NCBI GenBank assembly: GCA_964536865.1
Contig: CAZHYN010000002.1
Span: 608 to 64,607 of the forward strand
Length of the DNA stretch: 64,000 nucleotides
Direction: 5' to 3'
Source of the DNA: an uncultured Planctomycetia bacterium
Lineage (GTDB): Bacteria; Omnitrophota; Gorgyraeia; Duberdicusellales; 4484-171
Shown: in pieces, positions 6,393 through 13,145 of the stretch
Layout: every line of letters begins with the position of its first letter
Numbering within the stretch: the stretch's first letter is position 1
Translations under genes and position numbers: made by a program
Notes under the pieces: model-generated
Database searches by the model: none
What the model saw: the letters and a program-made list of their open reading frames with translations, nothing else
Told to the model about the DNA's origin: nothing

Positions 6393-7066
6393 TCTTCTAT
6401 TTTGTAACCTATACCTCTTACATTTTTAATAAATTTTGAAGCTTTGCCTAACTTTTCTCTTAAATTTTTAATATGGACATCTATGGTTCTGTCCAAAACC
6501 GCTTTATCATGTCCCCATAAATGGTTTAGAATCTGGTCTCTTGTAAATACCCAGCCTTTTTTAGAAGCCAAGATTTTTAAAATTCTGAATTCAGTTGGGG
6601 TTAAATCTATTTTTTTATTTTCTACAAAGACCTGGAATTTATTAAGATCTATTAAGAGAATATCGCCTATTTTGATCTTTTTGCCAGAATCTTGTGTTTT
6701 TCTTCTTAAAACTGCTTTTACCCTGGCAACTAATTCTCTTGGGGAAAAAGGTTTTGTTACATAATCGTCTGCTCCTAACTCTAAACCTAAAACTTTATCT
6801 GCTTCATCAGCACGAGCAGTAAGCATAATAACAGGAATAAATTTAAAATCCTCTTTTGATTTTAAATATTTGCAAATTTCAATACCATCTGAATCGGGAA
6901 GCATAAGGTCTAAGATTATAAGGTCAGGCATTTTGGAAGATAAGAATTTAAAGAAGCTTTCTGCATTTAGGAATTCTTTAACTTTAAAACCAGATTTAGT
7001 AAGGTGCAAAGATACAAGCTCTAAAATATCAGGTTCATCATCTATTACTGCTATCAATTCATTCAT
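6389..7066 (-). CDS. phoB: OmpR/PhoB-family response regulator
   Basis: 225 aa. It has a receiver domain (VIDDEPDILEL..LDLMLPDSDG) and a C-terminal winged-helix domain (LTPTEFRILKIL...RTIDVHIKNLREKL). Confidence 0.85.
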   Translation of the reverse strand: MNELIAVIDDEPDILELVSLHLTKSGFKVKEFLNAESFFKFLSSKMPDLIILDLMLPDSDGIEICKYLKSKEDFKFIPVIMLTARADEADKVLGLELGADDYVTKPFSPRELVARVKAVLRRKTQDSGKKIKIGDILLIDLNKFQVFVENKKIDLTPTEFRILKILASKKGWVFTRDQILNHLWGHDKAVLDRTIDVHIKNLREKLGKASKFIKNVRGIGYKIEE

Positions 7067-7111
7067 CTTTTGAAGTTAAAATCATTCCATATAAAAATTC
7101 AAACAATTTTT

Positions 7112-7139
7112 GATAACATCATATAATTTTAGATAACAT
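7112..7139. promoter_or_regulatory. candidate operator: direct repeat GATAACAT x2 with 20-bp periodicity, 45-70 bp upstream of phoB
   Basis: GATAACAT occurs at 7112-7119 and 7132-7139. The copies are on the same helical face and flank a TATAAT-like hexamer (7123-7128). Location only; the site is weakly Pho-box-like. Confidence 0.25.
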
Positions 7140-7254
7140 TTGTCAATCTCGCGTTCCTTAGAACGCATAGCCGATTTATCCACAAACATTTGTGAAGATG
7201 TAATATTCATAACAGAAGGCAAAATTATAAAACATCACAAAGATGAAAGTTAAG

Positions 7255-7700
7255 GTGATGGGCGGGGATAGGTTTCTTTTTGTTCCGATGGCAATCTGGA
7301 ACATAGGCTAATATAGACAGGTGCTTGAGGAGGGGTTTTGTTAACCTTACCTATTCTTTAAAATATTTCTCTTAAAAGATTTAAAATTGGTAAGCCAGTC
7401 AGCAAAAAAATAAAAATTTCTATTTTCCCTATTCTTTAATTACAAAAATTCTTTTCTGCCGAAAGGCAGACAAACCCCTATATAAGATGAGTTTTTAAGA
7501 GAAGATTCTTTTAATTAAAGCCTCCTCAAAGCAAGTGCTTGAGGAAGCTATCCAAAAGGGAAACAAACTTCCCGACGAAATGTCGGGATAAACTCCGCGC
7601 AGAAGTCCGCCTGTCCCGATGAGCAATAGCGACATCGGGAAGCACCGACTTGTCCGCCTCTGGAGGAGACTGCGGGGTGGGTGGGGAATTAAATCCTTTT
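7255..7700. ncRNA. GC-rich structured-RNA-like island of unknown class
   Basis: The island has local GC content far above the surrounding sequence. Hairpins are CCCGACGAAATGTCGGG (7571-7587), CCCGATG..CATCGGG (7615-7639) and a GAAA-tetraloop hairpin TCTGCCGAAAGGCAGA (about 7455-7470). There is long-range complementarity between TTGAGGAGG (about 7325) and CCTCCTCAA (about 7521). No conserved motif of RNase P, tmRNA, SRP or 6S RNA was recognised. Confidence 0.35.
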
Positions 7701-8099
7701 TACTTAATATTCTTTTTCTTACATTTATGGATTGTGTTAGGCAGGATTATTGGGATGATAAAGGTTGGTTCTTCTTCAGATGGGGAGCCATTATTATTAC
7801 TACAAACTAAGTTTTTGGGACTTTCTGAATATAAATCTCTCTTTAAATTATTCCATTCCCACTCATCCCAACTATTTAAATCAGAAGAATCTTGAAGTGT
7901 AAAATTCCTTGAAAAATAAAGATTTATCTGGATGTTTTCTTTTGAGTAGATTATTTCTTTGATGAATTTTTTAATGAAAAGATTCTTTTCAATTCCTTTC
8001 TTTTGAGGGAGGGTTTTTTAATACCAATTTTGTTAATAATGCATAAACTAATGCAAGAAGCTTTTATTAAGTTAAGGGGGTGTCTACAGTGATTTTAAG

Positions 8100-8372
8100 C
8101 TAAATCTTTCCCAGAAACATCAATATCCCTATTATCACAAAGAGTATCGCACCAGCATACCGTATTAGTTCTGGTTTAAGATACTCCCCTAGAGCCGCTC
8201 CAATCAAAACTGAAAGAGCTGTTACTACCATATATGCAGAAACCGAACCTAGCCATACAGCGAAGGGCTTACCTGATTTTGCAGACATACCTATTCCAAC
8301 TAATTGAGTTTTATCGGCAAGTTCTGCCAAAAATATTGCTCCAAATGTTACTAGGAATATTTTCCAATACAT
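8100..8372 (-). CDS. UPF0016 (GDT1/TMEM165/MneA-like) family membrane protein, single-domain half-size form
   Basis: 90 aa with 3 predicted transmembrane segments. The family signature E-x-G-D-K-T is present as ELADKTQ in the first transmembrane segment. Confidence 0.7.
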   Translation of the reverse strand: MYWKIFLVTFGAIFLAELADKTQLVGIGMSAKSGKPFAVWLGSVSAYMVVTALSVLIGAALGEYLKPELIRYAGAILFVIIGILMFLGKI

Positions 8373-8469
8373 TAAACCCTCATTGTTTTTCTTTGCTTAA
8401 AAACTCATTCCGTCGATAAATTCAAAATAGTAAGTGACTAAATTACCCGATAGATTTAGTGGTAGTCTC

Positions 8470-9147
8470 TTATCGGCCTCTACCTCTACCTCCAACGGGC
8501 ACCCCTTTAGATCTCCCCACACCTTCTGGCTTGCCAACTCCTTCAGGCTTACCTATACCTTCTGGTTTGCCTATGCCTTCAGGTATACCGATTCCTTTTG
8601 GTATTCCTATTCCTTCTAGCTTGCCAGTAGGGAGTTCACCTCTTTGAATTTTTCTCAAGATACCTAAGGCAGTATTTCTTCCTGTCTTGGATACTTCTAT
8701 TGCATGTCTAATAGCAGACCGTGCTTCTTTGGGGACTTTACCCACAAGATCGCTTAAGACTTCAATATGTTTCTTAGTAGACCTCTCAACTGCTTCTAAG
8801 GCTTCACTTACATCATATCCCTGCGCTTGAGCTTTGTTAATCTGTTCCATTGCTCCATTAATATACTTTTCATAGTCTTTTAAGAGATCATTTACAAACT
8901 CAGGCTTGCCTTTAGAAATCATCGCTTTTACTTCCTTTAATCTTTCTTTGGCGTACTTTGTGTAAAGGTTAGCCTTCTCTAATGGATCAAGTGCAGCCTT
9001 TAATTTTGCTGCCTCCATTTGCCGTTTTGCTTGATAGAGTGGATCATCAGGCAATGTCTCTGGCTCATTTTGAGCAAAGGCTATGCTTGCCAAGAATACA
9101 CATATAAGTGTCAATAGCCACATTCTAACGCTTCGCATTTTCCACAC
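8470..9147 (-). CDS. secreted alpha-helical protein with a C-terminal tandem hexapeptide (G-I/V-G-K/I-P-E) repeat tail
   Basis: 225 aa with a signal peptide (MWKMRSVRMWLLTLICVFLASIAFA) and a helical charged body. The C-terminus reads GIGIPKGIGIPEGIGKPEGIGKPEGVGKPEGVG..GRGRGR. Confidence 0.55.
   Translation of the reverse strand: MWKMRSVRMWLLTLICVFLASIAFAQNEPETLPDDPLYQAKRQMEAAKLKAALDPLEKANLYTKYAKERLKEVKAMISKGKPEFVNDLLKDYEKYINGAMEQINKAQAQGYDVSEALEAVERSTKKHIEVLSDLVGKVPKEARSAIRHAIEVSKTGRNTALGILRKIQRGELPTGKLEGIGIPKGIGIPEGIGKPEGIGKPEGVGKPEGVGRSKGVPVGGRGRGR
8521..8634. repeat. tandem approximately 18-bp repeats (about 6 units) that encode the hexapeptide repeats of the 8470..9147 CDS
   Basis: The plus strand reads ACCTTCTGGCTTGCCAAC / TCCTTCAGGCTTACCTAT / ACCTTCTGGTTTGCCTAT / GCCTTCAGGTATACCGAT / TCCTTTTGGTATTCCTAT / TCCTTCTAGCTTGCCAGT. 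Confidence 0.7.
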
Positions 9148-9348
9148 CTCCTTTGTTAAAATTTGTTATTAAAATTGTTCTGTCTTGTATCTGGAGCTAC
9201 TATAACCCTTTTTGTTTTTTTCTTCATCACCTCCTTTCTCCTTATCTTTAAGCAAAATATATACCAAAATAATGTATCTATCCTTTCTTCCATATATTTA
9301 AACCACTCAAATAATGAAAAGTTTCGGATACCTTATTTTTTACACATA

Positions 9349-9564
9349 TTAATCTTTTATTAGCTCATCTAAGGAAACCCCTAAGGCTTTCGCAATATTG
9401 GCAATTGTTTGGATCGAGGGATTAAGCGTGTAGCCTGATTCAATTTTTAGATATGTACTATAAGGAATATTTGCCTTTCTGGCTAACTGATCTTGGGATA
9501 ATCCTAATTTCTTCCGATATTTTTTGATATTTTTTGCTATAGTTTTGCTTGACATCATATCCAT
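9349..9564 (-). CDS. XRE-family (Cro/CI-type) helix-turn-helix transcriptional regulator
   Basis: The 71-aa product contains LGLSQDQLARKANIPYSTYLKIESG, the classic HTH_3 motif. It is divergent from the recombinase gene across a 44-bp gap. Confidence 0.75.
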   Translation of the reverse strand: MDMMSSKTIAKNIKKYRKKLGLSQDQLARKANIPYSTYLKIESGYTLNPSIQTIANIAKALGVSLDELIKD

Positions 9565-9608
9565 TTTTGGCTATCCTTTTATGGTAAATATATTTTAACT
9601 ATCCAATT

Positions 9609-11192
9609 ATGGATTTTAACAAAGAGGAGGCTAAAATGCAAGAAAAATTAAGATGTGCAATTTATACAAGGGTAAGTACGGATAATCAAGCAGAAGTTGA
9701 GTTTAACTCTTGTGAGGCTCAAGAAGAAAAGATAAGAGCATTTATTAAAAGTCAAGAAAATATGATAATTTATAAAGTTTACTCTGATGCTGGGTCCACA
9801 GGAGTAAATCTTAATAGACCTGCTTTACAGAAATTACTTGAGGATATAAAACAAGGCAACATTAACATTGTTTTGGTTTACAAAATTGACAGACTTACCC
9901 GTTCTCCTAAAGATTTCTACTACTTAATGGAGATTTTTGAGAAATACAAAGTTGATTTTATCTCAATCACAGAAAGATTTGATACCTCTACTCCAGCAGG
10001 AAGACTTTTAAGAAACATAATGCTTACCTTTGCTCAGTTTGAAAGAGAGTTAGCAAGTGAGAGAACAAAAGATAAGATGCTTCAGAGAGCAGAAAAAGGG
10101 TTATGGAATGGCGGTATTTCTCCATTTGGATACAAGACATTAAATAAGAAACTTGTTCCTCATGAGCAGGAAGCTAAAGTTGTTAAGTTAATATTTGAAA
10201 CTTATGTTGATACTGGGTCTATAGCAGAGGTTTATAACACCCTGAAAGAGAAAAATATTTTAAATAGGCATGGCAAAGTTTTTACCAAATCAAGTATTAA
10301 AAATATCCTCTCTAATCCTGTCTATATCGGGAAGTTAAAATATGCTGGGAAAATTTATAATGGACTACATCAGCCTATAATTAGTGAACTTCTCTTCAAC
10401 GAAGCTCAGGAACTGCACAAAAAGAAAATCAGGGAAATGAAACTCTTTAGAAATTATCTTTTTGCAGGTTTAATCACTTGTGAGGAATGCAGATCAAAAA
10501 TGACGCCAACCTATACAAACAAAAAAGCAAAAAGAGGAAGAAAGAGATATTTTTATTATAGATGCACCTCTACCCTAAAAAGAGACTGGCAGGTATGCAC
10601 TACAAAACAGGTAAACGCTGATAGGCTGGAAAGATTTGTTTTAGAAAATTTAGAAAGAGTATCAAAAGATGAGCCTTATATTGAAAATCTTTGTTTTAAA
10701 CTTAACCACAATCCAGATGAGTTAGTTCGAAATTCTCTTATAAAAAATAAGGTATCGGGCGACCGGGCTGGATTCGAACTAAGCAGGGAGCAATTGAAAA
10801 TTGAGCCTAAAGGTTTAATTTTCCAACTTAAAACCTTCCTTAACACTCTCTCCTCCCTCTCCCGAGCCGAGCAGGTTCTTTTAATAAAAGAAAAAATTGA
10901 CTCAATAAAATATTCCAAAAAAAGAATCAGGGTAAACTTCAAATATTCCTTAAAAATCAACAACTTAAACCCCTCTCAACAAGGTTCTGGTCAGGTGGGG
11001 GTGGGTGGTGGGAGTTTAGAGAAAGAAAATCAAAATATCCCTTCCTTTTATTCTTCCGATTTAGTTCGAAAAGAAATAATGGCTCCCCGGGCAGGGCTCG
11101 AACCTGCGACCCGCTGGTTACACCTAATCCCTGAGTTTCCCCAGAGGGTGGACTATCTCTTCACCATATTCCGACGTAATGTCGGAACTTAG
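9609..11192 (+). CDS. large serine recombinase (resolvase domain, recombinase domain, zinc ribbon and coiled-coil); integrase-type
   Basis: The N-terminal catalytic motif is AIYTRVSTDNQ, followed by DRLTRS and the recombinase-domain motifs GISPFGY, NPVYIG and HQPIIS. A Cys cluster CEECRSK..YYYRCTS..C is present. The last roughly 37 codons are antisense to the tRNA and intron, so the true C-terminus may lie a little upstream. Confidence 0.8.
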   Translation: MDFNKEEAKMQEKLRCAIYTRVSTDNQAEVEFNSCEAQEEKIRAFIKSQENMIIYKVYSDAGSTGVNLNRPALQKLLEDIKQGNINIVLVYKIDRLTRSPKDFYYLMEIFEKYKVDFISITERFDTSTPAGRLLRNIMLTFAQFERELASERTKDKMLQRAEKGLWNGGISPFGYKTLNKKLVPHEQEAKVVKLIFETYVDTGSIAEVYNTLKEKNILNRHGKVFTKSSIKNILSNPVYIGKLKYAGKIYNGLHQPIISELLFNEAQELHKKKIREMKLFRNYLFAGLITCEECRSKMTPTYTNKKAKRGRKRYFYYRCTSTLKRDWQVCTTKQVNADRLERFVLENLERVSKDEPYIENLCFKLNHNPDELVRNSLIKNKVSGDRAGFELSREQLKIEPKGLIFQLKTFLNTLSSLSRAEQVLLIKEKIDSIKYSKKRIRVNFKYSLKINNLNPSQQGSGQVGVGGGSLEKENQNIPSFYSSDLVRKEIMAPRAGLEPATRWLHLIPEFPQRVDYLFTIFRRNVGT

Positions 11193-11415
11193 GTGCCGGG
11201 CGCTTCCCCCGATATAACATCGGGGTACTCCCTTTTCGGGATAGTCTCTGCACCTTCCCCGACGTTCCGTCGGGGCTTGGCTCAGGGTTACCATCCCTGA
11301 ACTACAAGAAGTTCAGAGTACAGGCTTCCCTGAATTCACCCGGTTTTTCATCCCGATGTTTCCATCGGGAGCTGCTCTTCACAGCCAGCTGCTCTACCTG
11401 CTGAGCTACCGGGGA
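11080..11415 (-). tRNA. tRNA-Asn(GUU) interrupted by a 260-nt group I intron (exons 11381..11415 and 11080..11120)
   Basis: The exons join to a canonical 76-nt tRNA. The acceptor stem is TCCCCGG/CCGGGGA and the D-arm is GCTC-AGCAGGTA-GAGC. The anticodon stem is GCTGG/CCAGC with loop CU-GUU-AA. The T-arm is GCAGG-TTCGAGC-CCTGC, the discriminator is G and CCA is encoded. The intron lies between positions 35 and 36, after a U as group I splicing requires. Confidence 0.75.
11121..11380 (-). ncRNA. group I self-splicing intron within the tRNA-Asn anticodon loop
   Basis: The P7 core elements are R = CAGAGACUA (plus coordinates 11242-11250) and S = AAGAGAUAGUCC (11150-11161). P1 forms from the exon GGCUGU and the IGS GCAGCU with a U-G at the splice site and loop GAAGA. 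The intron ends in omega-G (complement of 11121). Several GC-rich peripheral hairpins are present. There is no internal ORF. Confidence 0.7.
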
Positions 11416-11652
11416 AGTTATTTTATCTAAGAACTTTCTTCCCTGACCTGATTTAAGAAAACGTTCTCTTTGTCTAGCTTCTTTCACACAAACAAACTCT
11501 TCATAATACACTAAATCAAATGGACCATTCTGCCTAGTCCACTGATTGGAACCTGAATTATGCTCTTTTAGACGCACTTCAACTCTTTTCGAAGTACAAC
11601 CTATATACCTCTTACCATTACGTCTACTTTTTAATACATAAACTATAGCCAT
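11302..11652 (-). CDS. GIY-YIG nuclease superfamily protein (small, YhbQ/Slx1-like catalytic domain only); the ORF reads through into the tRNA
   Basis: The N-terminal 75 aa (MAIVYVLKSRRNGKRYIGCTSKRVEVRLKEHNSG...) carry the GIY-YIG motifs (VYVL..GKRYIG, R..EH, E). The last roughly 38 codons (11302-11415) coincide with the tRNA 5' exon and intron start, so the effective protein is probably about 75-80 aa (11428..11652). Confidence 0.65.
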   Translation of the reverse strand: MAIVYVLKSRRNGKRYIGCTSKRVEVRLKEHNSGSNQWTRQNGPFDLVYYEEFVCVKEARQRERFLKSGQGRKFLDKITSPVAQQVEQLAVKSSSRWKHRDEKPGEFREACTLNFL

Positions 11653-11664
11653 CTTTCTATCTTA

Positions 11665-11790
11665 TTACAGCCCTCGCCTGAGGCGAGTTCGCCTTCGGCG
11701 AAAGCTGCTCCCTGTCTACCAGCAGGTAGGTACCTGCTTAAGCTTCCGCCTGAGGCGGATCAGCCTCTGGCTGAACCGGGGAATAAGTTA
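11665..11790. repeat. cluster of four GC-rich hairpins, with a 9-mer shared with the tRNA 5' end
   Basis: The hairpins are CTCGCCTGAGGCGAG (11673-11687), TTCGCCTTCGGCGAA (11688-11702, UUCG loop), AGCAGGTAGGTACCTGCT (11721-11738) and CCGCCTGAGGCGG (11746-11758). ACCGGGGAA..GTTA at 11775-11790 echoes the tRNA 5' end at 11407-11420. Confidence 0.4.
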
Positions 11791-12368
11791 ATTTACAAAG
11801 AGCTCATCTCTTCCAATTTTGCATACTCATTATACAACCATTGTTCTAATTTATCAACTATATTGTTACTTATCAGAAAGTAGTTATCTTTAACTTTATG
11901 AATAGCAAACGAAGCTTATTTTACCTGGACATTCCCAAAAAATAACCCTGAATTTCTCTAACGCGCTATAATCCAGTGAGTTAAGAAAATTAAAATCTGA
12001 TTAGCTGCAAAGGTGAAATTTTAGGTTAAACCCGGATTTTGCATTAGCAAAATCCGCCCCAAGGGCAGCCCTTTATTCTTCATAAGAAGAAATTCATTCG
12101 TAGAAATAAAGAGCTGGGTTAACCCAGCCCTTTCAAAAGAAAGGGCTTCTCCTTTTTAGACAAATTTTTCCCCGCCTGCTAAAAGTATATGTAAGTATCG
12201 GCGGGCAGGTAATGAAAAATTTGGGTTAAAAAATGAGCAAAGACTTCCCCAAAATTTTGGAAATCTAATGTTTTCAATGCTCTTTTAAGGTGAGAAATCC
12301 CGTTGTAAATTATCCATTTCATAGACAGGAAAACTCCAGGTTTTACAAATTGAAAGTTTATCAATAAG

Positions 12369-13145
12369 ATGGTATATTTATTTGATATGATAAAGATAGG
12401 TGACTTAGTGCTTCTTTATAAAGATGAAAAAAGGAACTACTTACTTAAAGTAGAAAGTAAAAAATTCCATACCGACAAAGGAATAATCGAATTAGAAAAA
12501 CTTGTAGGAAAAACCTACGGAGATAGTGTAGAAACAAATTTAAGAGAAAGATTTTTTGTCTTGAAACCTACTCTCTACGAACTAACGATGAAGGTGAAAC
12601 GTAAAACGCAAATCATTTACCCTAAAGACTTAGGAATAATTCTTACTAAAGCTACACTCTTTCCTGGAGCAAAAGTTATAGAGGTCGGCACAGGAAGCGG
12701 ATCTCTAACTACTGCCTTAGCAAATTTTGTAAGACCTAATGGTAAGGTATACAGCTATGAAAAAAATAAAGAATTTTTAGATAACGCTAAAGCCAACTTA
12801 GAAAAGAATGGATTATCTTCCTGGGTAGAATTTAAACACCGAGAAGTGATAGATGAATTTGAAGAAAAAAATGTGGATTTTATAATGATTGACACTGGTA
12901 GCCCTTGGGAGTTGATTGGGGCTGCCTATAAATCTTTAAAAAGCGGTCACCGGCTAGCTACTATCTGTCCTACTTTTGAACAGGTTACCCAGACAGTATT
13001 TACTTTAGAAAAAAAAGGATTCATACATATAGAAACTATGGAAGTACTTCTAAGGAGAATTTTGGTAAGAAGAGGCAAGACCCGTCCTGAACAAAAAATT
13101 CCTTCCCATACTGGATTTTTAATCTTTGCCTCCAAAATTCATTAA
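12369..13145 (+). CDS. trmI: tRNA (adenine-N1)-methyltransferase TrmI (Gcd14 family)
   Basis: 258 aa with a SAM-binding motif (VIEVGTGSGSLT). It has the N-terminal beta-domain and C-terminal methyltransferase architecture of TrmI. Confidence 0.75.
   Translation: MVYLFDMIKIGDLVLLYKDEKRNYLLKVESKKFHTDKGIIELEKLVGKTYGDSVETNLRERFFVLKPTLYELTMKVKRKTQIIYPKDLGIILTKATLFPGAKVIEVGTGSGSLTTALANFVRPNGKVYSYEKNKEFLDNAKANLEKNGLSSWVEFKHREVIDEFEEKNVDFIMIDTGSPWELIGAAYKSLKSGHRLATICPTFEQVTQTVFTLEKKGFIHIETMEVLLRRILVRRGKTRPEQKIPSHTGFLIFASKIH

Follow-up and report, generated by a model that had tools for sequence, protein, structure and literature searches.

Whether a transfer RNA (tRNA) gene is interrupted by a self-splicing intron on the minus strand of a 64-kb stretch from an uncultured bacterium (contig CAZHYN010000002.1; "the window" denotes this whole stretch, and positions refer to it unless another contig is named), and if so which tRNA and at which bond, was the question raised by a first-pass annotation of the letters alone. 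Herein, we found that the gene running from 11415 to 11080 (minus) very probably encodes tRNA-Asn(GUU), with its U35 and U36 separated by a 260-nt group I ribozyme that lacks an open reading frame (ORF) and belongs to the 35/36, or "Asn.4Ug", class. This intron is a further member of an already described and experimentally validated class and is not new as a type. The first-pass annotation had regarded an Asn host with an insertion at 35/36 as unusual, a view made outdated by the class defined by Williams (2020), by the work of Nakagawa et al. (2026) and by the 50 such loci among 120 listed in our own scan. The locus adds a probable Omnitrophota host to this class.

A split tRNA-Asn gene and its group I intron

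The exons were delimited with ARAGORN and by comparison with intronless alleles. The 5' exon (11381-11415, minus; 35 nt, tRNA nt 1-35) ends in GGCUGU, the last base of which, U35, is U-1, and it is identical to the same segment of the intronless alleles on metagenome contigs L248, L246 and L244. The 3' exon (11080-11120, minus; 41 nt, nt 36-76), which the intronless alleles likewise support, starts with UAACC and includes an encoded CCA at 11080-11082. ARAGORN folded the ligated exons into a canonical 76-nt tRNA-Asn(GUU), bearing out the earlier claim that the joined flanks give a 76-nt tRNA with an encoded CCA, and the fold contained all the elements listed there, namely a 7-bp acceptor stem, a 4-bp D stem, the anticodon stem GCUGG/CCAGC, the T arm GCAGG-UUCGAGC-CCUGC and G73. 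The 7-nt loop CU-GUU-AA had been said to need the removal of 260 nt, and both the sequence and the uninterrupted alleles equal to the ligated exons agree with this. The identity of the host tRNA is marked by U1-A72 and G73, which are common to 50 other class members. The GC content was 53.8% in the intron, 67% in the exons and 35.9% in the window, so that the insert is indeed GC-rich in an AT-rich genome as first described; a raised GC content is usual for structured RNA in such a genome and is by itself no sign of foreign origin. When ARAGORN was run with default settings over the whole 64-kb window, it reported zero tRNAs. Standard tRNA finders overlook such genes or mis-name them Thr(UGU), and this mis-annotation makes genomes seem to lack tRNA-Asn and lowers estimates of their completeness.

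The intron occupies 11121-11380 (minus), begins with G, ends with omega-G at 11121 and is identified by Rfam, by alignment and by covariation. The Rfam search that the first-pass annotation had proposed returned a match to Intron_gpI (RF00028) at 11129-11464 (minus) with 83.4 bits, above the gathering score of 50 (E = 9.8e-20), covering model positions 1-253 of 253, and this was the sole Rfam family match in the 64 kb. The intron together with six exon nucleotides folded at -127.9 kcal/mol, corresponding to a z-score of -9.7 relative to dinucleotide shuffles.

All core helices were present, making up the P3-P8 and P4-P6 domains and the P7 pseudoknot with its guanosine-binding G-C pair. P1 (11370-11386, minus, as are all the helices) pairs the exon GGCUGU (11386-11381) with the guide GCAGCU (11375-11370) across the loop GAAGA, as had been read from the letters, and places a U35·G wobble at the 5' splice site; the corresponding pair was U·G in 45/45 homologues. 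P2 is the hairpin CCGAUG-GAAA-CAUCGGG (11352-11368), with compensatory changes in 6/6 pairs. The 5' strand of P3, CCGGGUG (11337-11343), pairs with its 3' strand, CGCCCGG (11196-11202). P4 (11328-11332 with 11283-11287; 11283-11332 overall) encloses P5/P5a (11291-11324) and is followed by the P6/P6a hairpin (11252-11281), in which 8/9 pairs show compensatory changes. The 5' strand of P7, GAGACUA (11242-11248), lies within the R element CAGAGACUA, and its partner, UAGUCC (11150-11155), lies within the S element AAGAGAUAGUCC; the first-pass annotation had named both elements as P7-forming, and both were found. The 5' strand of P7 was invariant in the alignment, which is partly an effect of the search pattern. 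Two extra hairpins, P7.1 (11229-11241) and P7.2 (11207-11225), fill the segment between P7 and P3' (11207-11241), a feature of subgroup IA, and the P8 hairpin occupies 11162-11195. In the last element (11121-11149), P9.0 pairs ACC (11147-11149) with GGU (11122-11124) around the P9 hairpin (11129-11146) and stands directly before the G that had been noted at the end of the insert, marking 11121 as omega-G.

To assess covariation, we aligned 45 tRNA-Asn introns from other species (alignment A1), applied RNAalifold and added P7 as a pseudoknot. RNAalifold recovered P1, P2, P3, P4, P5, P6, P8 and P9. Standard pairs were present in 97.3% of the cells of the alignment, compared with 80.4% in shuffles and at most 44% when the partners were slid, and the covariation score was 0.479, compared with at most 0.089 with slid partners. 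Compensatory changes were found in 32/56 pairs, distributed across P2, P3, P4, P5, P6, P8 and P9. P9.0 before the terminal G had at least 2 bp in each of the 51 tRNA-Asn introns examined and 3 bp in 35 of them; over 10 covarying combinations occurred, among them AAG/CUU, GAG/CUC, ACC/GGU, GCU/AGC and GUG/CGC. Directly observed were the sequence and the structure with its covariation, the exact position of the boundaries, and uninterrupted alleles that match the joined exons.

As judged from the sequence, the intron is consistent with subgroup IA, although this does not amount to proof. Hairpins of the P7.1/P7.2 type also occur in the Asn, Lys.2, Phe.2 and Leu.1 seeds of Williams and are absent from the seeds of classical IC3 tRNA introns; the insertion at 35/36 and the extra hairpins do not accord with subgroup IC3. 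Nor does a 260-nt intron without a homing endonuclease ORF qualify as autonomously mobile.

Alleles, splice register and rival explanations

Scanning metagenomes with 26 nt of the 5' exon as the query yielded 16 contigs, and the contigs whose exons are identical or nearly so showed three allelic states, namely an uninterrupted tRNA, an ORF-less intron and a 599-nt intron with an HNH-like ORF. Uninterrupted alleles were found on L244, L246, L247, L248 and L257. The tRNA-Asn of L248, which lies behind a GIY-YIG ORF 96% identical at the amino acid (aa) level to the one beside our tRNA, equals the ligated exons over nt 1-74, and those of L246, L244, L247 and L257 differ from them in this range only once, at position 60. 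In addition, the proteins of cluster P0123 (GIY sequence 99% identical, 12 member sequences) are encoded by ORFs that read straight through an intronless tRNA-Asn. The 260-nt ORF-less intron is present in the window and on L255, which has 1 mismatch in 336 nt. On L243, a 599-nt group I intron (159-757) interrupts tRNA-Asn at 35/36, and its exons also differ once, at position 60. The P1 loop of the L243 intron holds an ORF with the motif CxxC...HH...N...CxxC..H, which we call only HNH-like because the Pfam HNH match (E = 0.0022) was below the cut-off, and over its 3' 270 nt the L243 ribozyme shares 74% identity with the intron in the window.

Because presence and absence of the intron alternate between near-identical contexts, this polymorphism confirms the intron boundaries. 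As read from the sequences, the series is the pattern expected from a classic homing cycle, in which an endonuclease-bearing intron would invade, the ORF would be lost, and the intron itself would eventually be lost or absent. Most likely, the present intron derives from an HNH-carrying mobile intron like that of L243, the ORF having since been lost. An allele series of this kind at a single tRNA forms a compact natural example of the bacterial homing cycle.

Two registers supply both U-1 and a terminal G (..CU|GU|GAAG...UAGG|UG|UAA..), one giving tRNA-Thr(UGU) interrupted at 33/34 and the other tRNA-Asn(GUU) interrupted at 35/36. The former was reported by ARAGORN -i (as Thr(tgt)) and is formally possible from the sequence, having a U before its 5' site and a G at its intron end, but P1, P9.0 and the uninterrupted alleles led us to reject it as highly improbable. 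Within P1, U33 forms a Watson-Crick U-A pair, whereas U35 forms the helix-ending U·G wobble; the 33/34 register finds only a 3-bp "P1" located 42 nt into the intron, compared with the 6-bp P1 at intron nt 5 for 35/36. P9.0 (ACC/GGU) ends just before the last G and not two bases earlier. At about half of the homologous loci, U-1 and omega-G coexist only in the 35/36 register, and the tRNA body (U1-A72, G73) exactly matches that of uninterrupted tRNA-Asn genes. Moreover, a two-base mis-call by ARAGORN and tFind has been documented, in which sequencing of the spliced product favoured Asn (Nakagawa et al. 2026, PMC13011429). The splice sites were therefore fixed at 35/36 on the basis of the U35·G wobble in P1, P9.0 with the terminal G, the covariation and an intronless allele identical to the ligated exons, and the terminal G was taken as omega-G because P9.0 ends directly before it and covaries in 51 introns.

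We also asked whether the resemblance is due to chance, or whether the intron belongs to something other than a tRNA gene, such as an IStron or a protein-coding gene. Default tRNA finders do report nothing at the locus, and the same core motif occurs in viral contigs, where most matches lie outside tRNA genes. However, with an Rfam E-value of 1e-19, exons that directly abut the ribozyme and join into a perfect tRNA, the same arrangement in 50 other species and the existence of uninterrupted alleles, the probability left to this explanation is negligible. A relic intron, dead in a redundant or pseudogenised tRNA copy whose precursor is unspliced or not made while another, uninterrupted gene decodes Asn, deserves more weight, since mobile DNA crowds the locus (a GIY-YIG cassette, recombinase elements and a decayed half-tRNA), the window is only 64 kb of the genome and the intron has no endonuclease gene. 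Against it, each core helix is intact and follows the covariation pattern of the class, the tRNA exons equal those of uninterrupted alleles, the independent contig L255 keeps the 336-nt precursor with a single substitution, and published intron-containing tRNA-Asn genes are the sole genomic copy; we consider a dead relic to be quite unlikely.

Several points weigh against an active split tRNA-Asn gene of this class. Splicing at the locus is predicted from sequence and not from RNA, and the copy number of tRNA-Asn is known for the 64-kb window, which holds no other tRNA. P7 and the central part of P3 were invariant in A1, where the search pattern had fixed them, and so carry no independent covariation weight. 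In the genome sample, identity to the closest homologous intron reaches only about 65-70%. P10 has at most 1 bp, so that exon alignment presumably depends on the tRNA body or the anticodon stem; Zaug et al. reportedly found in 1993 that the tRNA body holds the exons together for the Anabaena tRNA-Leu intron.

Taking the locus as a tRNA-Asn gene with a functional 35/36 intron, we propose the following course of splicing. The precursor would be transcribed, probably from the promoter at 11857-11829 and through the GIY-YIG ORF, and the intron would fold into its P3-P8 and P4-P6 domains, connected through the P7 pseudoknot. The guide GCAGCU would pair with exon nt 30-35 (GGCUGU) to form P1, so that the U35·G wobble would mark the 5' splice site and the anticodon stem would lose its last two pairs. 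In P7, a bound exogenous guanosine would then attack after U35, P9.0 (ACC/GGU) would deliver the terminal G (11121) to the same P7 site, and the 3'-OH of U35 would attack after this G. Ligation to ...CUGU|UAA... would restore the 7-nt loop CU-GUU-AA, and RNase P and 3' processing would yield a normal tRNA-Asn. That this RNA would be catalytic is expected from its homology to class members for which self-splicing in vitro has been shown (Nakagawa et al. 2026).

The proposed GIY-YIG cassette, the recombinase and the wider neighbourhood

The larger potential value of the locus lies in its neighbours and not in the intron. Directly upstream of the tRNA, a mini GIY-YIG nuclease ORF (11416-11652, minus; Pfam PF01541, E = 2e-14) has a core of 79 aa; lacking a stop codon ahead of the tRNA, it continues to 11302, giving 116 aa. 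Members of this family (148 clusters) are typically 80-81 aa long, and among named homologues of the GIY protein the closest comes from Omnitrophota. Upstream of the ORF lies a decayed copy of tRNA-Asn nt 1-35 (TCCCCGGU ... GAGCAGCU ... GGCUGU; 11667-11782, minus), which is interrupted by GC hairpins; in the window as in L246, the old half-copy ends exactly at position 35, the intron site. The string ACCGGGGAA occurs only twice in the window, at the intact and the decayed 5' halves. Before the old half, a near-consensus sigma-70-like promoter (TTGATA-17-TATAAT; 11829-11857, minus) was found, which is probably the native tRNA promoter. L244 and L243 are cassette-empty alleles, in which the homologous promoter region leads straight into an intact tRNA, and L246 is an occupied allele, in which the same promoter region is followed by the old half, the GIY ORF and the full tRNA.

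In ten independent contexts of the family, the ORF adjoins the 5' end of a complete tRNA gene (Asn, Val-GAC, Val-UAC, Val-CAC, Thr-CGU and Pro-UGG). A prefix of 8-17 nt from the 5' end of the adjoining tRNA recurs upstream of the ORF in 8/10 of them, and a conserved pair of GC hairpins (TTCCGCCnnAGGCGGA CCAGCCTTCGGCTGG) stands beside the partial tRNA copy in most contexts examined. Cassette contexts were located at 11416-11857 (minus) of the window, L246 8650-9180, L258 1925-2340, L259 1935-2470, L260 1960-2414, L262 440-816, L263 1040-1466, L266 1140-1510 and L267 470-875. The stop codon of the GIY ORF is formed by U8-A9-G10 of the tRNA in 6/10 contexts, thus lying 10 nt inside the tRNA (L246, at 9104-9113, L259, L260, L262, L266 and L269). 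In the lineage of the window (11302-11420), the junction is out of frame and the ORF reads through the tRNA, giving 116 aa with the intron (protein P0121) and 106 aa in intronless alleles (cluster P0123); such a read-through GIY mRNA would be left without a stop codon after RNase P cleavage.

From these arrangements, we tentatively propose that the mini GIY-YIG proteins belong to undescribed, widespread mobile cassettes that invade tRNA genes, one of which may have entered tRNA-Asn at 35/36, a proposal whose chances we put slightly short of even. The cassette, about 290 nt long, would consist of a leader, the GIY ORF and a new copy of tRNA nt 1-35, and would thereby regenerate the tRNA. Its insertion would leave the hairpin-studded old 5' half behind the native promoter, which the cassette would then use. 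If this is true, the cassette would represent a new way for a selfish nuclease gene to inhabit an essential RNA gene without an intron. Literature searches on an association of GIY-YIG genes with tRNA genes returned only T4 SegB and general reviews, with no account of the present arrangement.

Several further observations were made at GIY loci. The cassette hairpins were considered as a genome-wide repeat of the repetitive extragenic palindromic (REP) type, and this was rejected, as within the 64 kb they are confined to this locus. On L259 (2375-2470) and L269 (about 1511-1560), tRNA-Val-like sequences with no proper 5' end and with the same hairpin pair in the position of the D loop lie downstream of the GIY-tRNA unit, and these may be displaced remnants of the invaded gene. 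Two intron-bearing tRNA-Asn genes, on L042 and L100, have GIY ORFs downstream of them, a layout that differs from the upstream cassette, and no half-tRNA duplicates were found beside those ORFs. The Logan contig SRR7517633_71655 (L001), an independent assembly of the same organism, ends at about 12141, some 490 nt upstream of the GIY ORF, and many members of the GIY family lie on contigs shorter than 1.5 kb; these assembly breaks and short contigs fit multi-copy or polymorphic DNA at GIY loci.

On the other side of the tRNA, a large serine recombinase ORF (9609-11192, plus; Pfam Resolvase, Recombinase and Zn_ribbon_recom) converges with the tRNA gene, and its last approximately 37 codons run antisense through the tRNA 3' exon into the intron. 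Large serine recombinases abutting intron-bearing tRNA genes were also found on L036, L040, L081, L107, L091 (at a tRNA-Phe), L243, L255 and L258; the recombinase stop lies inside or at the tRNA 3' end, and the layout recurs in unrelated phyla with divergent recombinases. Between L255 and the window, the module of GIY ORF, tRNA and intron is 97.5% identical and the recombinase only 35-53%. Loci with and without an abutting recombinase diverge in their flanks after tRNA position 74, and the sequences suggest an attachment site at the tRNA 3' end. A search for direct repeats of the tRNA 3' end, as expected at the borders of a classical tRNA-integrated island, found none, the only repeat of this end being a 14-nt inverted copy at 7782-7795. 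That copy belongs to a relic of a second recombinase C-terminus at 7782-8018, which has 88% nucleotide identity to the end of the L244 recombinase and is joined to this inverted copy, which covers the tRNA 3' end together with adjoining flank (GGGGAGCCATTATT, also present at 11075-11088).

The host probably belongs to Omnitrophota. Among named sequences, the best relatives of the GcvPB protein encoded in the window come almost exclusively from Candidatus Omnitrophota, with 62-69% aa identity. The genes surrounding the locus are ordinary chromosomal ones, for glycine cleavage, lipoate, Suf and a two-component system. Beyond Intron_gpI, a permissive Rfam scan of 7000-12400 gave only sub-threshold chance matches (PsrR1, anti-hemB and SodB thermometer) in GC-rich hairpin regions. 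At 7540-7680, an AT-rich, ORF-poor gap contains a GC-rich segment with several perfect hairpins (e.g. CCCGACGAAAUGUCGGG and CCCGAUGAGCAAUAGCGACAUCGGG), for which there was no Rfam match, anti-hemB being sub-threshold only. A DUF5667 protein is encoded at 8470-9147 (minus) and has C-terminal tandem repeats of 18 nt (6 aa, PEGIGK-like) at 8501-8626.

Distribution and comparison with known systems

The number of bacterial tRNA intron classes was raised from 4 to 21 by Williams (2020, bioRxiv 10.1101/2020.01.27.920355), whose seed Pam37.Asn.4Ug denotes Asn, loop position 4 (35/36), U-1 and omega-G. This seed is 93-97% identical to the cyanobacterial members of A1 and 69% identical to the present intron, which aligns throughout with 44 other Asn introns. 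In vitro, one tRNA-Asn and one tRNA-Asp intron were shown to splice themselves out precisely at 35/36; the product was sequenced, and an omega-G->C mutant served as the control (Nakagawa et al. 2026, mSystems, PMC13011429). Among 4,934 complete genomes, the same study found 28 introns at 35/36, comprising 19 in Patescibacteria, 3 in Cyanobacteriota, 3 in Nitrospirota and 1 each in three other phyla; 25/28 were classed as IA, and HNH endonuclease genes were present in four tRNA-Asn introns of Patescibacteria.

To extend this view, we scanned a collection of one genome per species with a pattern from the intron core, AGAGACUA-N20-50-AGCGCCC-N15-45-GAGAUAGUCC, which matched at least 120 loci. Loci were classified with ARAGORN -i and by testing all eight loop registers for U-1, omega-G, P1 and P9.0. 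The sample is biased by the pattern and restricted to the matches listed, so that it shows breadth and not prevalence. Of the 120 loci listed, 50 were tRNA-Asn at 35/36, followed by Met/Ile2(CAU) at 36/37 (18), Phe at 33/34 (11), Leu(UAA) at 33/34 (6) and Tyr at 35/36 (2); five other registers had 1 locus each, and 27 loci were left without a class. The 50 Asn loci span more than 15 phylum-level labels, including cyanobacteria (Phormidium, Floridaenema and Hormoscilla), Nitrospira, Acidobacteriota, Aminicenantes, Binatia, Rokubacteria, delta-proteobacteria, Eubacteriales, Saccharibacteria, Peregrinibacteria, Elusimicrobia, Margulisbacteria, Gemmatales, Bacteroidota, Anaerolineales, Actinomycetota and Bdellovibrionota. 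Such breadth suggests a far wider spread of the 35/36 Asn class in uncultured phyla than was apparent from surveying complete genomes. One contig labelled as a Klebsiella pneumoniae metagenome-assembled genome (L114, CAMBFS010000088.1) carries a tRNA-Asn 35/36 intron of the same family and is probably mis-binned.

Compared with the Asn.4Ug class, the present intron has the same tRNA-Asn host, the same 35/36 phosphodiester, U-1, omega-G and extra hairpins between P7 and P3', and the same mis-call by ARAGORN as Thr(UGU) at 33/34. Its length of 260 nt equals the median of the Asn 35/36 introns among the matches listed (231-361 nt) and is close to the published mean of 257 nt for tRNA introns (PMC13011429). 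It differs in its probable Omnitrophota host, a phylum that is not named by Nakagawa et al. (2026), whose examples were mainly from Patescibacteria, and it has no ORF, in contrast to the four HNH-carrying introns of that phylum.

The classical IC3 introns are those of Anabaena/Nostoc tRNA-Leu(UAA) at 34/35, cyanobacterial tRNA-fMet at 33/34, and Azoarcus tRNA-Ile(CAU) and Agrobacterium tRNA-Arg(CCU) at 36/37. Like them, the present intron is a small ORF-less ribozyme in the anticodon loop, with P1 formed from nucleotides of the anticodon loop and stem and P9.0 before omega-G, and J3/4, J6/7, P7 and J8/7 are near-identical (AAUUC..., GCAGAGACUA and GAGAUAGUCC). However, the insertion site and the host tRNA of the IC3 introns are different, their seeds lack the hairpin pair between P7 and P3', and introns at 35/36 have been published as IA.

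Subgroup IA introns are known from phages, such as T4 td, and an insert of the P7.1/P7.2 type is shared by these introns and by the motif-sharing introns of the IMG/VR database. The core motif AGAGACUA...AGCGCCC...GAGAUAGUCC was found in at least 120 viral contigs of IMG/VR (L122-L241), and tRNA genes hold only 2 of the 120 viral matches listed. The remaining matches presumably lie in protein-coding genes, which is where published phage introns sit.

At the level of the whole locus, the nuclease and the ORF-less intron could be thought of as a collaborative homing pair, in which the intron would shield the regenerated target site. The coincidence of the cassette insertion point with the intron site is a likeness to the collaborative pairs of cyanophage S-PM2 (F-CphI/psbA) and T4 (mobE/I-TevIII), in which a free-standing endonuclease gene neighbours an ORF-less intron, and to T4 SegB. 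In contrast to those pairs, the GIY protein here is only 80 aa long and has no DNA-binding domain, and the two elements are connected only by adjacency and by the coincident insertion point. Because the relatives L246 and L248 combine the GIY cassette with an uninterrupted tRNA, so that the pairing is not obligatory, we consider collaborative homing unlikely. For the cassette, the nearest precedent is T4 SegB, a GIY-YIG endonuclease gene located inside a tRNA gene cluster.

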